From positions 457 through 31,810 of the forward strand of contig DBEI01000037.1 in assembly GCA_002294445.1 (NCBI GenBank): a DNA stretch of 31,354 nt, in the 5' to 3' direction. Made by a program: the position numbers and the translations under genes. Under the pieces are notes generated by a model. It was not told where the DNA came from and did no database searches. It saw only the letters and a program-made list of their open reading frames with translations. Position 1 is the stretch's first letter. The number at the start of each line of letters is the position of its first letter. Shown here piece by piece: positions 5,042 to 23,294 of the stretch. Source of the DNA: Patescibacteria group bacterium UBA910 (GTDB lineage Bacteria; Patescibacteriota; Minisyncoccia; Phycocordibacterales; DATDWN01).

Positions 5042-5128
5042 GGAGGATTGGATGAGTGGCTTAAATCAACGGTTTACTAAACCGTCGTTCGGGAAACCGA
5101 ACCGTGAGTTCGAATCTCACATCCTCCG
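5042..5128 (+). tRNA. tRNA-Ser with anticodon ACT
   Basis: Acceptor GGAGGAT/ATCCTCC, discriminator G; anticodon stem ACGGT/ACCGT with loop TT-ACT-AA (5074-5080); long variable arm GTTCGG-GAAA-CCGAAC; T-arm GTGAG-TTCGAAT-CTCAC. Confidence 0.9.
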
Positions 5129-5316
5129 CAAATGAAAGACACCCTCCGGGGTGTTTTTCATTTGCAGAGGAAAGCAAAACTGGAAGTTTTGAGGGTGAGA
5201 TTCGAACGACGGAGCGGGCACCCATCGAGCACGATGGGTCGCGAGTCGGTGCCCAGTCTAAAATTTTTTGACGAAAAAATTTTAAGGCGAGGGAGAAATT
5301 CTCACATCCTCCGCAA
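5129..5316 (+). repeat. tRNA 3' trailer element, copy B
   Basis: Hairpin 5124-5169; antisense T-arm copy at 5195-5207; shared core 5197-5298; 17-bp exact repeat of this tRNA's 3' end at 5300-5316 (equals 5115-5131). Confidence 0.85.
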
Positions 5317-5600
5317 CGAAAGTTCCTCATACCGATTTAGGTATGAGGAACTTTTTGTTTACAGGAGTGGAGGTGAGATTCGAAAGATGGAGGCGGCATA
5401 CAAGACGAACGAAGTGGGTGCTTATCGCCGAGTCGGGCTGAGCCATGAAGTGACAAGCGGAGGACCTTTTGAGATTTTTTATAAACTTGTGTAATAAAAA
5501 ATCCAAAAGAGATACCAACCCTGTAAAGGTCGAGAGTACTTGGTGCTCGCAGGATGTATTCACCTGAGAACACTTAGTAACTCGTGACCGAATCTCAAAT
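5317..5600 (+). repeat. Second, divergent trailer unit
   Basis: 15-bp stem at 5319-5354; another antisense T-arm GGTGAGATTCGAA at 5372-5384; core-like GA.GGAG..GGCA...CGAGTCGG; A/T-tract hairpin; ends with a degenerate TGACCGAATCTCA. Confidence 0.6.
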
Positions 5601-14264: not shown

Positions 14265-15113
14265 ATGAACCTCAGCAAATTCAAGAAAACCATTTGGGAT
14301 TACTACAAAACACACGGGCGACACGATCTACCATGGAGGAAAACAAAAGATCCATACAAGATACTTGTATCAGAAATCATGCTTCAACAAACTCAAGTGC
14401 CCAGAGTAATAGAGAAATACAAAAGCTTCTTGAGAAAATTTCCAACAGTAGAATCTCTGACAAAAGCATCACTCAAAGATGTGCTCCTTGAGTGGCAGGG
14501 GCTCGGCTATAATCGCCGAGCGAAATACCTCAAACTCTGTGCGGAAAAAGTTGTTCACGAATACAACGGCAGGTTTCCTCAAACACACAAAGAACTTGTT
14601 GCACTTCCTGGCATCGGCCCCGCTACTGCAGGAGATATTCTCGCCTTTGCATACAATATTCCTGTACCTGTCATAGAAACAAACATCCGATCTGTCTTTA
14701 TTCATTTTTTCTTCCCTGCTTCGCTTCCTCCTTCGCTAAAGCTTCAAAGGACAAGCAAGCTACGCAGGACAAGCCCACTTATTAGCGATAAAGACATTCT
14801 GCCATTGATTGAAAAGGTATTGGATAAAAACAACCCAAGGGAATGGTACTGGGCACTTTTTGACTATGGTGCACACTTGAAGCAGACACGAAACCCAAAC
14901 ACACAGAGCACACATTACGTGAAGCAATCCCCTTTCAAAGGTTCAAACCGAGAAAAACGCTCGCATATTTTGAAACTCATTTTAACTGCACCAAAAAGTG
15001 AAAAAGAAATTGTTGAAACTCTGGGATATGAAAAAGATGTTGTGCAAAAAAACTTAGAGCAAATGATGAAAGAAGATTTAATTAAAAAAGAGAAAGGAAA
15101 ATTTTTTGTATAA
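14265..15113 (+). CDS. mutY: MutY-like A/G-specific adenine glycosylase (HhH-GPD), short Fe-S-less form, with an internal repeat-derived insertion
   Basis: Motifs LPWR, SEIMLQQTQV, WQGLGYNRRA and LPGIGPATA; only one Cys; no C-terminal NUDIX-like domain. Confidence 0.85.
   Translation: MNLSKFKKTIWDYYKTHGRHDLPWRKTKDPYKILVSEIMLQQTQVPRVIEKYKSFLRKFPTVESLTKASLKDVLLEWQGLGYNRRAKYLKLCAEKVVHEYNGRFPQTHKELVALPGIGPATAGDILAFAYNIPVPVIETNIRSVFIHFFFPASLPPSLKLQRTSKLRRTSPLISDKDILPLIEKVLDKNNPREWYWALFDYGAHLKQTRNPNTQSTHYVKQSPFKGSNREKRSHILKLILTAPKSEKEIVETLGYEKDVVQKNLEQMMKEDLIKKEKGKFFV
14716..14774 (+). repeat. In-frame copy of the tmRNA/GIY-YIG-linked repeat
   Basis: CTTCGCTAAAGCT (14731-14743) and AAGCTACGCAGGACAAGC (14757-14774) match CTTCGCTAAAGCTACGCAGTGCAAGC at 22855-22880. 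Confidence 0.75.
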
Positions 15114-21922: not shown

Positions 21923-22366
21923 ATGAGCCTGATTGAAAACCGAAAGGTCCGTTTTAATTACGAAATCACCGAGACAATACCTGCTGGTATTGAGCTTTTT
22001 GGTTTTGAAGTAAAATCCCTTCGAAACGGCCAAGGTTCTCTTGAAGGTTCATATGTTACCGTCCGAGGCGGTGAAGCATTTGTTATAGGTATGCAGATTC
22101 CCGCATATCAAGAAAACAATACTCCTAAAGAGTATGATCCTCTTCGTAACCGTCGCCTTCTCCTTAACAAAAAAGAGATTGCTCGCCTTGGAGAGATAGA
22201 ATCCCAGAAAGGGTTGACAATAGTACCTATTTCAGTGTATAATAAAAGTAAAGTTTTAAAAGTTGATCTCGGTATTGCAACCGGTAAAAAGAAGTTTGAT
22301 AAACGAGAGACAACAAAAAAACGAGAAGTTGACCGAAACATTCGACGAGAGTTTAGTGATCGGTAA
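21923..22366 (+). CDS. smpB: SsrA-binding protein SmpB
   Basis: Motifs NRKVRFNY, AGIEL.GFEVKSLR and KKFDKRE; lies directly upstream of the tmRNA. Confidence 0.96.
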   Translation: MSLIENRKVRFNYEITETIPAGIELFGFEVKSLRNGQGSLEGSYVTVRGGEAFVIGMQIPAYQENNTPKEYDPLRNRRLLLNKKEIARLGEIESQKGLTIVPISVYNKSKVLKVDLGIATGKKKFDKRETTKKREVDRNIRREFSDR

Positions 22367-22442: not shown

Positions 22443-22851
22443 GGGGGTGTCAGGTTTTGACATAGTCTGCATCCGTTCGCGCACTACAGAGTTCTAGTCA
22501 CTCTCAAAACAACTAGAAACCATACGTGTAAACAATACTGTTGCACGAGCAAAAGCTTCTGTTTCTCCATACTTTGGAGTAAACGACTTTGCTTTCTCTT
22601 ACGCACGAGCTTAATTTTAAGACTCGTCCCTAGGAGGGGGTGATACATCTGATATCTCATACGATGCCTCATTCATATAACCTTGAGATCCGGTCACTTC
22701 CCTGTTTCAGGATTTGACTCAAAAAATGAAACTCGCCTTTTTCTTGTTTTGTGTATTTTATAGAGAAAAAGTCTAAACGTTAAAATATTCTATGTAGTGT
22801 AGACCCGTTCGTATTCTCTCTATGCACGTGGTTTCGATACCACCATCTCCA
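22443..22851 (+). ncRNA. ssrA: tmRNA
   Basis: 5' GGGGGTG pairs with 3' CATCTCC (including G3-U70), discriminator A; T-arm GTGGT-TTCGAT-ACCAC; internal tag frame 22528-22614; adjacent to smpB. Confidence 0.9.
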
Positions 22852-22970
22852 CTGCTTCGCTAAAGCTACGCAGTGCAAGCACTAAATACCTTTAGCACAT
22901 CAAACTTCACTCAACACGTGAGGTTTTTTGTTAGCGAAGAAGTGGATCCTGTGTAGCCTTGGCGAAGCAG
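22852..22970. repeat. Inverted-repeat element preceding the GIY-YIG gene
   Basis: CTGCTTCGCTAAAGCTACGCAG (22852-22873) vs reverse complement of 22949-22970 (CTGCTTCGCCAAGGCTACACAG), 19/22; a partial third copy TTAGCGAAG at 22931-22939. Confidence 0.75.
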
Positions 22971-22988
22971 GATATATATAATAAATAT

Positions 22989-23228
22989 ATGCACTATGTC
23001 TATATTTTAAAGAGTCAAAAAGACAACAGCCTCTATATTGGCAGTACAGAAAATGTAAAAAATAGACTAAAGGAACATAACCGAGGCGAATCGACATATT
23101 CAAAAACTAAAAAACCATTTTCTTTAGTTTGGTTTTGTATATTTCCTAACAAACAAAAAGCTTTAGCTTTTGAAAAATATCTCAAACATGGTTCAGGACA
23201 CGCTTTTACAAAAAAGCATTTAATTTAA
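22989..23228 (+). CDS. Small stand-alone GIY-YIG nuclease
   Basis: MHYVYILKS...LYIGSTENVKNRLKEHN...ALAFEKYLK, 79 aa from the ATG at 22989. Confidence 0.9.
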   Translation: MHYVYILKSQKDNSLYIGSTENVKNRLKEHNRGESTYSKTKKPFSLVWFCIFPNKQKALAFEKYLKHGSGHAFTKKHLI

Positions 23229-23237
23229 GTCAAAGGG

Positions 23238-23250
23238 TCGATACCACCAT
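23238..23250 (+). repeat. Duplication of the tmRNA 3' end (att/TSD-like)
   Basis: TCGATACCACCAT is identical to 22834-22846 and continues into hairpin GATACCAC/GTGGTATC. Confidence 0.7.
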
Positions 23251-23294
23251 TTTTGAAAGTGGTATCAAAACAACGGAAGGTATAAAATATACAC

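Follow-up and report, generated by a model that had tools for sequence, protein, structure and literature searches.

The window analyzed here is a stretch of 31,354 nucleotides from Patescibacteria group bacterium UBA910. On its plus strand it carries smpB (21923..22366; Pfam SmpB, E=4.7e-49), the partner gene of tmRNA, immediately upstream of the tmRNA gene itself (22443..22851, plus strand; Rfam RF00023). The RF00023 match spans 22443-22854 and scores 61.9 bits with a cut-off of 47, the discriminator A lies at 22851 and the CCA is not encoded; ARAGORN called no tmRNA at the locus, whereas Rfam calls one. Metatranscriptome contigs cover positions 22466-22811 of the tmRNA. smpB was present in 41/41 genomes searched, the source genome included, and served as the conserved flank for locating the equivalent locus in relatives.

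Downstream of the tmRNA gene and on the same strand (22989..23228) is a gene for a 79-aa, single-domain, UPF0213/SLX1-like GIY-YIG nuclease, in agreement with the earlier note on this DNA. The Pfam GIY-YIG match (PF01541; E=2.6e-20, 72.9 bits with a cut-off of 22.6) occupies residues 1-67, and no second domain, DNA-binding domains included, was found in the protein, which stops at residue 79. The ATG at 22989 is supported as the start by alignment with relatives, and residues Y3, Y5, Y16, G18, R26, H30, N31, and E62 are invariant in a nine-sequence alignment (A1). The catalytic residues are intact and the protein is a predicted nuclease; their conservation across the family implies that the nuclease is under selection. 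The nearest solved structure is 1ZG2 (UPF0213 protein BH0048; E=1.7e-10), with SLX1 next, and a protein-atlas look-up returned the GIY-YIG assignment again and nothing further. The gene is single-copy in the genome, and a simple promoter scan detected no canonical promoter for it.

The segment separating the two genes is a structured leader. A 22-bp inverted repeat lies at 22852-22873 and 22949-22970, its arms complementary at 19 of 22 positions as claimed previously, and none of the window shuffles used as a significance test yielded two matches. Although described as an inverted repeat pair, the arms are not element termini at this locus: each lies on the upstream side of the gene, and together they represent opposite-strand copies of one conserved hairpin unit. 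Hairpin unit 1 (22850..22875, minus strand), with the core GCGNAGC-TTTA-GCGNAGC, holds the first arm. Unit 2 (22948..22971), whose core reads along the plus strand, holds the second and ends 17 nt from the nuclease ATG. Because both units lie upstream, within 140 nt of the gene, the hairpins do not bracket the nuclease gene here. The outer stem of unit 1 (CACTGC/GCAGTG) is built with the final tmRNA bases, and by taking these into its own structure the unit leaves the tmRNA gene intact; in relatives an equivalent of unit 1 is found at the matching place, with its stem tailored to the end of each host RNA. Next comes a mini-palindrome, GTGCAAGCAC (22873..22882, plus strand), a conserved leader element that takes the form GTGCANGCAC in most tRNA- and tmRNA-linked leaders. 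Enclosed by the repeat arms is a terminator-like hairpin with a T run (22902..22934, plus strand), which is probably the tmRNA terminator and which in relatives occurs either at the matching place or within the loop of unit 1. It is followed by a distal arm (22931..22946, plus strand) that can pair at 15 of 16 positions with 22848-22863, that is, with the last bases of the tmRNA and the first 11 bases of the leader; in relatives the equivalent arm, GCGAAG+NNGTGG, changes in concert with the end of the host RNA.

On the other side of the nuclease gene is a right-end remnant (23229..23275, plus strand), consisting of a 13-nt tmRNA copy, a weak hairpin and a stretch (23259-23275) that is antisense to the tmRNA T arm. 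The 13-nt word at 22834-22846, in the T-loop/3′ part of the tmRNA, is repeated exactly at 23238-23250. The two copies, both at this locus, are the only ones in the 585-kb genome, so that the duplicate described by the earlier note is both exact and unique; the chance expectation of such a local match is estimated at ∼1e-4. The duplicate begins in the T-loop and stops short of the tmRNA 3′ end. The downstream hairpin that had also been described (23240-23266) is genuine, although its fold is weak (z = -1.6 to -2.2). The remnant as a whole is homologous to the module that closes the trailer arrays of same-genus relatives, and at six other loci (L019, L026, L064, L085, L088, and L122) the equivalent duplicates match each host's own RNA. 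The 13-nt copy was also considered as the second exon of an intron-split tmRNA and rejected, because a complete tmRNA already stands upstream and an acceptor stem could not be re-formed from the copy. A 9-mer, GTCAAAGGG, that the remnant has in common with the palindromes of the Y1 transposase on contig C55 is attributable to chance, with 3 copies found and ∼4.5 expected.

tmRNA genes are classic integration sites, where islands leave a direct repeat of the 3′ part of the gene. A 13-nt repeat starting in the T-loop could accordingly be what remains of an integrase-type island that has decayed, the GIY-YIG gene being surviving cargo. No integrase was found within 22852-23294 or in the adjoining genes, however, which bears out the earlier statement that the locus lacks an integrase or transposase; elsewhere the genome encodes one tyrosine recombinase (its sole PF00589 match, on another contig, C67), one serine recombinase and one Y1 transposase (its sole Y1_Tnp gene, on C55, between copies of a palindrome unrelated to the GCGNAGC unit). 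The island reading is further opposed by the recurrence of the same layout of 0.3-0.45 kb, with the nuclease as the only gene, across dozens of lineages and at many tRNAs, and a chance resemblance is excluded by the shuffles together with the genome-wide uniqueness of the 13-nt word. An island scar or a chance resemblance is thus regarded as highly improbable.

The recurrence became evident from a homologue search with a three-sequence alignment (A2), for which all counts cover the 80 closest homologues in public genomes. Co-oriented tmRNA (31) or tRNA (34) ends lie upstream of ∼65 of these 80 genes, at a spacing of 29-459 nt between RNA gene and nuclease gene (median 134) and with a chance level for such anchoring of ∼2%. 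The 34 tRNA anchors represent 12 amino-acid types, and 5 of the 15 non-anchored homologues are cut by a contig start. The family leader consists of hairpins of GCGNAGC heptamers. The first of these hairpins is fitted to the terminal bases of the host RNA; both it and the distal arm vary according to the final 3-6 nucleotides of the RNA concerned, and many copies end by repeating the 3′ end of the RNA gene that hosts them. Gene, hairpins and duplicated RNA end thus form a single cassette recurring at the 3′ ends of stable RNA genes, as had been suspected, and such cassettes are found at varied tRNA and tmRNA genes of several phyla. In a tRNA-Gln/Gly/Asn/Thr subclade there is one hairpin at each end of the gene, the two being inverted and framed by a directly repeated stretch of the tRNA end, 7-16 nt long, and the left hairpin is nearly identical at 5/6 tRNAs. 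One relative (L040) sits in a 16S rRNA insertion.

The co-occurrence of repeat and gene on which the earlier proposal turned is borne out locally and only faintly across genomes. A hairpin of the unit 2 type is present upstream of 42/80 homologous genes, and hairpin density is 2.3 per kb upstream of the genes compared with 0.02 per kb in the far flanks, an enrichment of ∼100-fold. The correlation between genome-wide hairpin copies and GIY-YIG gene number is weak (Spearman 0.21, relatedness uncorrected), and copy number by itself is therefore insufficient to link repeats and gene; the source genome itself has few hairpin copies and one nuclease gene. Exact dispersed units number 0-18 per genome, occur in both orientations and often lie in frame within ORFs. 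The existence of dispersed, gene-less units was correctly anticipated, including the copy inside mutY. Here two such units (14714..14776, minus strand), one nested in the loop of the other, form an in-frame insert in a gene for an HhH-GPD (mutY-like) glycosylase, in which a copy matching at 18 of 22 positions is nested within a split second copy; the insert is absent from 7/7 orthologues examined. Stem mismatches on the GCGNAGC-bearing strand are more often G.T than A.C (21 vs. 4 and 9 vs. 1) for units of either strand, an asymmetry that fits a single-stranded DNA structure and hints indirectly that the nuclease may cut single-stranded DNA. GCGNAGC mini-hairpin DNA has a published precedent (PMC13037366).

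The distribution among close relatives is patchy. The nuclease gene is present behind the tmRNA in 0/6 same-genus relatives, in one of which (G006) the genes flanking the tmRNA locus are syntenic, and three of the six lack any small GIY-YIG gene. No movement was observed: contigs of four public runs (two RNA, two DNA), in which rare forms would be invisible, contained no joint or circle and no allele lacking the cassette. A single loss in the common ancestor of those six relatives would account for the pattern within the genus just as well as a single gain. In carriers from three other lineages the nuclease is 76-84% identical compared with 65-69% for SmpB, a difference that could reflect constraint instead of transfer, and at L065 the leader is 85-90% identical compared with 67-72% for the tmRNA.

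In the same-genus relatives the tmRNA is followed by trailer arrays, with no nuclease gene there. The earlier suggestion that the system might also mobilize the tRNA-Ser trailers was not upheld, the GCGNAGC unit being absent from those trailers and the tmRNA trailer arrays of the relatives standing without the gene. In layout, the right-end remnant and the relatives' arrays recall the RtT/tyrT-type repeats of E. coli, in which every unit behind a tRNA gene terminates with a copy of that tRNA's 3′ end, and the mutY-like insert is comparable to the Rickettsia palindromic elements, which form in-frame inserts in genes; to our knowledge, neither type carries a nuclease gene. A search of Rfam to E=1 with the trailer modules of the relatives matched no family, RtT included, and returned spurious microRNA-type matches on the long hairpin.

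It is conceivable that the element acts at the RNA level, the hairpins being 3′-trailer, terminator or processing structures of the precursor and the GIY-YIG protein a co-located factor or passenger. Folded as RNA, the leader reaches -52.1 kcal/mol (z = -6.2), the nuclease gene and the RNA gene share one orientation in every case, and a long trailer hairpin, beginning with the RNA's terminal bases and closed around a terminator, is found behind tmRNA and tRNA-Ser even where there is no GIY-YIG gene. Against this, the units on the antisense strand keep G.T and not A.C mismatches on their own strand, units occur in both orientations and inside protein genes, and SsnA, a comparable nuclease discussed below, is inactive on RNA (PMC11893778); in addition, no RNA contig from two metatranscriptomes reaches beyond 22849 or lies over the nuclease gene. 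An RNA-level role is accordingly considered improbable.

The closest published parallel is SsnA of Neisseria meningitidis, a single-domain GIY-YIG nuclease that acts on single-stranded DNA and not RNA (Chenal et al., 2025; PMC11893778). Members of the Ssn family (cd10448) are ∼90-100 aa in length with no extra domains, and their hairpin repeats (NTS/SRM, 20-50 nt) are found beside the gene as well as scattered through the genome; the analogy with REP/RAYT systems and insertion sequences is drawn by the authors themselves, and neither tRNA genes nor Patescibacteria are mentioned (PMC11893778). The 79-aa protein described here is likewise a single-domain GIY-YIG nuclease with hairpins beside the gene (on one side at this locus) and dispersed, but its nearest structures are UPF0213/SLX1-like and its cassettes are fixed to the 3′ ends of tRNA/tmRNA genes, where their hairpins are fitted to the host RNA and the RNA end is duplicated. 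The degenerate SRM pattern published for Ssn has 0 matches at the locus and 0 in the flanks of the 80 homologous loci. Like REP/RAYT, the system ties a small nuclease-type gene to imperfect palindromes that also have dispersed copies, and in the tRNA-Gln/Gly/Asn subclade inverted hairpins occur on both sides of the gene, whereas here both are upstream; it differs in its fold, which is GIY-YIG and not HUH/Y1, and in its anchoring at RNA ends, which is no REP/RAYT trait. The proposal of a REP/RAYT-analogous system built on a GIY-YIG nuclease is partly supported, by the recurring cassette and its hairpins, but the concept is not new because Ssn with its NTS/SRM repeats has already been published (PMC11893778).

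Other GIY-YIG genes show parallels of a different kind. SegB of phage T4 is encoded among tRNA genes, drives its own inheritance and cuts double-stranded phage DNA at a recognition site that contains the conserved T-psi-C stem-loop motif (PMC2330249). As with genes of the Seg type, the gene at the present locus lies beside a conserved target and is patchily distributed in relatives, and the duplicate here begins in the T-loop; unlike SegB, the gene encodes a cellular protein of 79 aa and is accompanied by hairpin repeats. Characterized GIY-YIG enzymes as a rule possess a separate DNA-binding domain (PMC11893778), which the 79-aa protein lacks, setting it apart from free-standing homing endonucleases of the Seg type. 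In CPR bacteria, sparsely distributed GIY-YIG ORFs have been described in non-intron insertions of rRNA genes and judged to fall outside homing; that report deals with rRNA only, mentions neither tRNA nor tmRNA and, in the parts read, describes no hairpin leader (PMC11270868). Those insertions resemble the present case in phylum and in placing small GIY-YIG ORFs in stable RNA genes, as at L040. A literature search on GIY-YIG genes at tRNA/tmRNA genes, Patescibacteria, YhbQ, and UPF0213 found no description of the arrangement in the searchable papers; the anchoring at tRNA and tmRNA ends is new, while the concept of a hairpin-linked GIY-YIG nuclease is already published.

The resemblance to Ssn also raises the question of a domesticated host tool that cuts single-stranded DNA at hairpins, for example in modulating natural transformation or recombination, in which case the RNA-gene site would be an accident and the gene no longer, or never, autonomous. 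SsnA of Neisseria is precisely such an enzyme, with hairpins around its gene and genome-wide (PMC11893778), and both the family-wide conservation of the catalytic residues and the single gene copy in the genome are in keeping with this role. It would leave unexplained why ∼80% of the homologues lie at tRNA/tmRNA 3′ ends, why the first hairpin follows the end of each RNA and why host-derived duplicates bracket the unit, and it is also opposed by the lack of the SRM motif and of the gene behind the tmRNA in 6/6 same-genus relatives. A host tool of this kind is therefore possible but unlikely.

The region from 22852 to ∼23275 is best explained, with reasonable likelihood, as a minimal nuclease cassette with linked hairpins, lodged at the very 3′ end of the tmRNA gene, that is or once was mobile and is directed to stable RNA gene ends. 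Its parts are a structured two-unit leader, the 79-aa GIY-YIG gene, and a partial copy of the T-loop-to-3′ part of the host RNA; its movement, and the route taken, we infer. The nuclease may recognize its cognate hairpin in single-stranded DNA and nick beside it, as SsnA does. A break at or near the T arm/3′ end of a cassette-free RNA gene, a SegB-like site, could then be repaired from a cassette-bearing copy, which might be supplied by incoming transforming DNA, with the short conserved homology of the RNA 3′ part being used in the repair. Such repair would copy the cassette in and displace the old 3′ end, which would become the downstream duplicate. With a homing-like repair route of this type, the cassette would therefore be selfish or formerly selfish, residing on conserved, safe insertion sites.

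A bolder reading, offered tentatively, is that these cassettes constitute a distinct class of autonomous element. In such elements a single-domain GIY-YIG nuclease would take hairpins of the GCGNAGC type, presented in single-stranded DNA, as its recognition element and would home to the 3′ (sometimes 5′) ends of tRNA, tmRNA, and rRNA genes, regenerating the RNA end, leaving a target duplicate and spawning gene-less hairpin mini-elements that nest and insert in frame. If true, the Ssn-type hairpin-specific nucleases, which are of practical interest as site-specific cutters of single-stranded DNA, would be extended to a new hairpin motif and a defined genomic target, and for annotation the cassettes would flag a recurrent origin of duplicated tRNA ends and of peptide repeats that are spurious. 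The cassette would also be a very small self-propagating DNA unit, in which ∼0.35-0.45 kb comprises a 79-aa enzyme and hairpins. For the biology of the ultra-small bacteria, such elements would be the source of much unusual sequence near tRNA, tmRNA, and rRNA genes and would account for short palindromic inserts within their proteins.

The tmRNA gene in the window (22443–22854; Rfam, 61.9 bits), which lies downstream of smpB (21923–22366) and was not called there by ARAGORN, ends by alignment on a discriminator A at position 22851, with CCA unencoded. Directly 3′ of it is a 22-nt arm (22852–22873), followed by the mini-palindrome GTGCAAGCAC, a hairpin and T run resembling a terminator (22902–22934), a 16-nt arm (22931–22946) complementary at 15/16 positions to the tmRNA end and first leader bases, and a second 22-nt arm inverted relative to the first (22949–22970; 19/22). 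An open reading frame of 79 codons (22989–23228) then encodes a protein consisting of a GIY-YIG domain only (Pfam, E = 2.6e-20), and 5 nt past its stop is GGG plus an exact 13-nt copy of the T-loop, T-stem and acceptor start of the tmRNA. In a genome-wide word search this 13-nt word was found twice, in the tmRNA and in the duplicate, which is followed by a weak hairpin and then by sequence antisense to the T arm. The genes further downstream encode a 221-aa protein without assignment, a 137-aa membrane-like protein and IF-3. The arrangement described in an earlier note on this DNA (tmRNA, repeat arms, 79-aa gene, and 13-nt duplicate with hairpin) is confirmed, as is its statement that no integrase or transposase is present; the three recombinases of the source genome (a 585-kb assembly, 82% complete, of a Patescibacteria-type organism), one tyrosine (contig C67), one large serine (C58) and one Y1 transposase (C55), all lie elsewhere.

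Location behind a stable RNA gene is characteristic of the family. Homologues were scanned using the three closest proteins as query and one genome per species, and the best 80 of at least 500 relatives were kept. In 56 of these ARAGORN detected a tRNA or tmRNA that has the orientation of the nuclease gene and ends before it, with nine further tmRNAs detected by Rfam. The RNA-anchored total of 65/80 (gap 29–459 nt, median 134) compares with ∼2% estimated for a gene picked at random from genomes of this kind; five of the remaining 15 loci are cut by a contig start. The hosts are 31 tmRNAs and 34 tRNAs (Ala 9, Gly 5, Tyr 4, Glu 3, Asp 3, Ser 3, Gln 2, and one each of Ile, Thr, Asn, Met, and Trp), mostly from Patescibacteria lineages but also from Omnitrophota, Lentisphaerota, Kiritimatiellota, and Bacteroidota. 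Clustering by host RNA in a maximum-likelihood tree is modest (39 label changes versus 45.8 when shuffled, with 0/200 shuffles as low), and one large clade comprises tmRNA and tRNA-Ala hosts, with host taxa mixed. Both of these RNAs have alanine-type acceptor ends.

Each 22-nt arm is an imperfect palindrome in itself, with the core GCGTAGC-YTTR-GCGAAGC, in which two GCGNAGC heptamers are spaced 11 nt; the core is on the minus strand in the left arm and the plus strand in the right. The arms of the inverted repeat described in the earlier note are real, but they represent two copies of a hairpin unit within the leader rather than the termini of an element. The outer stem of the left unit (CACTGC/GCAGTG) includes the last tmRNA bases. 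GCGNAGC has been described as a “mini-hairpin DNA” motif (PMC13037366), a sequence match that may serve as a lead rather than a result. One plan for the stretch from RNA end to ATG is common to tmRNA- and tRNA-linked loci: the RNA end; a CTTCGC…GCTWCG hairpin, the outer stem of which copies the last 3–6 bases of the host RNA (CACCA/..GGTG for tRNA-Ala, CACCC/GGGTG for Tyr, CCATTC/GAATGG for Gly, and CCCGCC/GGCGGG for Asp); GTGCANGCAC; a terminator or variable part; GCGAAG plus the complement of the host RNA end; a hairpin unit on the plus strand, the outer stem of which covaries; and, at many (uncounted) loci, TATAAT a few bases 5′ of the ATG. Within 250 nt 5′ of the 80 genes, a relaxed unit motif reaches 2.3 per kb on the plus strand and 1.7 per kb on the minus strand; its density is 0.1–0.2 per kb downstream and 0.02 per kb in flanking sequence beyond 700 nt. 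Units are frequently nested in the loops of other units (loci L074 and L117, and a glycosylase gene insert in the window), and leaders or whole cassettes have been tandemly duplicated at L088 and L107.

The tRNA-Gln, -Gly, -Asn, and -Thr loci form one clade (support 100/99), in which an insertion unit that has defined ends and a target duplicate is indicated most clearly. Here the gene starts 29–56 nt past the tRNA (29–32 in 5/6), a minus-strand unit is located at the left and a plus-strand unit at the right, and a 7–16-nt direct repeat of the last tRNA bases brackets the whole cassette. The left hairpin is near-identical at five of the six tRNAs, in records of different phylum-level labels. 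In a further class the cassette is directly 5′ of a co-oriented tRNA, with a partial 5′ tRNA copy upstream in the examples L049 and L061, and one relative is housed in a 16S rRNA insertion. At L102 and L130 the cassette lies behind a duplicated RNA-gene 3′ end, itself after one or two trailer modules, and not behind a functional gene, a position which suggests that later insertions displaced it from the RNA gene.

The smpB-tmRNA locus was retrieved from 29 of 40 related genomes. None of six same-genus genomes has the GIY-YIG gene behind the tmRNA (SmpB 86–94% and tmRNA 88–93% identical), and one of them, G006, represents an empty site for the cassette because the gene downstream of its tmRNA is the 221-aa gene of the window. 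The same-genus relatives instead have a long trailer hairpin beginning on the CCAC of the tmRNA, and then arrays of two to four structured modules about 60–450 nt past the tmRNA end (L004–L009), each of which starts antisense to the T arm and finishes in a T-loop/3′-end-like piece; no Rfam family matched these modules at E up to 1. Positions 23229–23275 of the window are homologous to the last such module. The cassette is found behind the tmRNA in G007 (protein 84% identical versus 65% for SmpB), G020 (76% versus 69%), and the public record L065 (82% versus 67%), the last with a leader 85–90% identical and a tmRNA 67–72% identical. Another GIY-YIG subfamily occupies the position in G018 and G031, and a remnant in G010. 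Where present, the downstream duplicate corresponds to the tmRNA of its own host (ACCACCACTT for G007, TGCCGCCACT for G018) and is therefore host-derived, not element-borne. Between smpB and tmRNA, G003 (L004) and G007 (L019) each have an additional small GIY-YIG gene, which belongs to the classic UPF0213-like subfamily and is 38% identical to that of the window.

Hairpins without a nuclease gene are dispersed more widely. Across 121 genomes of the order there are 134 exact matches to CGWAGC-N4-GCGAAG (0–18 per genome), far more than for a reversed-pattern control, and nearly all loops are CTTG, TTTA, TTCA, or CTCG. Many of the G083 copies lie in frame within long ORFs, and one takes its stem from a tRNA-Gly 5′ end. 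Copies in the source genome are on contigs C38 and C60 and, as a nested pair, in an HhH-GPD glycosylase gene (window 14714–14776), so that the repeat copy earlier noticed inside a mutY-like gene is genuine; this insert is absent from seven orthologues, which have other short palindromic inserts or none there. The correlation of repeat with gene that the earlier note envisaged is weak: hairpin copy number and the count of GIY-YIG genes in each genome give a Spearman coefficient of 0.21 (p about 0.02, with no correction for relatedness). In the glycosylase, in-frame inserts that differ between relatives (orthologues L182–L188) concentrate at one hot spot, after the IHFF(F) motif; they are of ∼30 aa in G001 and G003 and short palindromes in G002 and G006. 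The C38 copy (2455–2602) is a near-perfect unit, with 2 mismatches to the tmRNA-side arm, followed by a GC-rich, trailer-module-like structured stretch with GCGACGGCG-type motifs that is cut by the contig end. The Y1 (HUH) transposase domain is encoded by a 210-aa open frame (C55:6910–7585) with the palindrome TCAAAGG-N4-CCTTTGA on both sides, a REP/RAYT-like pair that differs from the GIY-YIG unit; no copies beyond these two were found in the genome.

A suggested link between the nuclease and the tRNA-Ser trailers is unsupported, as neither the GCGNAGC unit nor a nuclease gene was found in these trailers or in core-like motifs. The trailers (window 5129–5320 and 5317–5600; also contigs C1, C40, C47, C48, and C67) have five parts, the first being a hairpin built on the end of the tRNA. 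A small spacer hairpin and a segment antisense to the T arm come next, then a conserved core consisting of GAGTCGGTGCCCAG and a hairpin, and last a 17-nt duplicate of the tRNA 3′ end; the second window unit, after the first, is diverged. Several other tRNAs in the source genome also have core-like motifs no more than about 250 nt away. ARAGORN assigns the tRNA-Ser (5042–5129) the anticodon ACT, unusual for bacteria and likewise flagged previously.

Folded as RNA, the leader reaches −52.1 kcal/mol (z = −6.2), with less marked folding as single-stranded DNA (z = −3.8 and −2.9). In metatranscriptome contigs the body of the tmRNA is represented and the cassette is absent. Outer-stem mismatches on the GCGNAGC-bearing strand are G.T versus A.C in 21 versus 4 cases for units on the transcribed-sense strand and 9 versus 1 for those on the opposite strand, in a small sample of related members. 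Since the G.T excess is on the GCGNAGC-bearing strand whichever its sense, it counts against a purely RNA role, and its direction would fit a structure formed by the GCGNAGC-bearing DNA strand.

Among solved structures, the 79-aa protein is closest to BH0048, a UPF0213 protein (E = 1.7e-10), followed by the structure-specific endonuclease SLX1. NCBIfam and PHROGs gave only weak UvrC and homing-endonuclease matches. The best precedent for targeting the T-loop part of a tRNA-type gene is T4 SegB, a GIY-YIG homing enzyme that recognises a site which includes the T-psi-C stem-loop motif conserved in tRNA genes (PMC2330249). SsnA of Neisseria, a 94-aa single-domain GIY-YIG protein, binds the directional hairpin repeat NTS and cleaves adjacent to it, in single-stranded DNA only; homologues from many phyla are flanked by hairpin repeats, and the authors point out how such systems resemble IS elements and REP/RAYT (Chenal et al., 2025; PMC11893778), with no mention of tRNA or Patescibacteria. 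These Ssn/SRM systems share with the cassette a single-domain GIY-YIG protein and hairpin repeats but differ in the repeat, since their degenerate consensus had no matches at the window locus or the 80 loci.

The proposal of a REP/RAYT-analogous GIY-YIG system is partly supported: stable-RNA ends do carry a GIY-YIG cassette and its cognate hairpins, and gene-less copies occur elsewhere, but the repeat pair is a leader feature rather than a pair of termini and the tRNA-Ser connection is unsupported. We infer the mobility of the cassette and its mechanism. Ssn/SRM is an already published form of the general concept. What appears to be new in the literature searched is that the cassettes are systematically anchored at tRNA and tmRNA gene ends, that the first hairpin is tailored to the host RNA, that RNA ends are duplicated, and that the hairpin motif is a distinct one.
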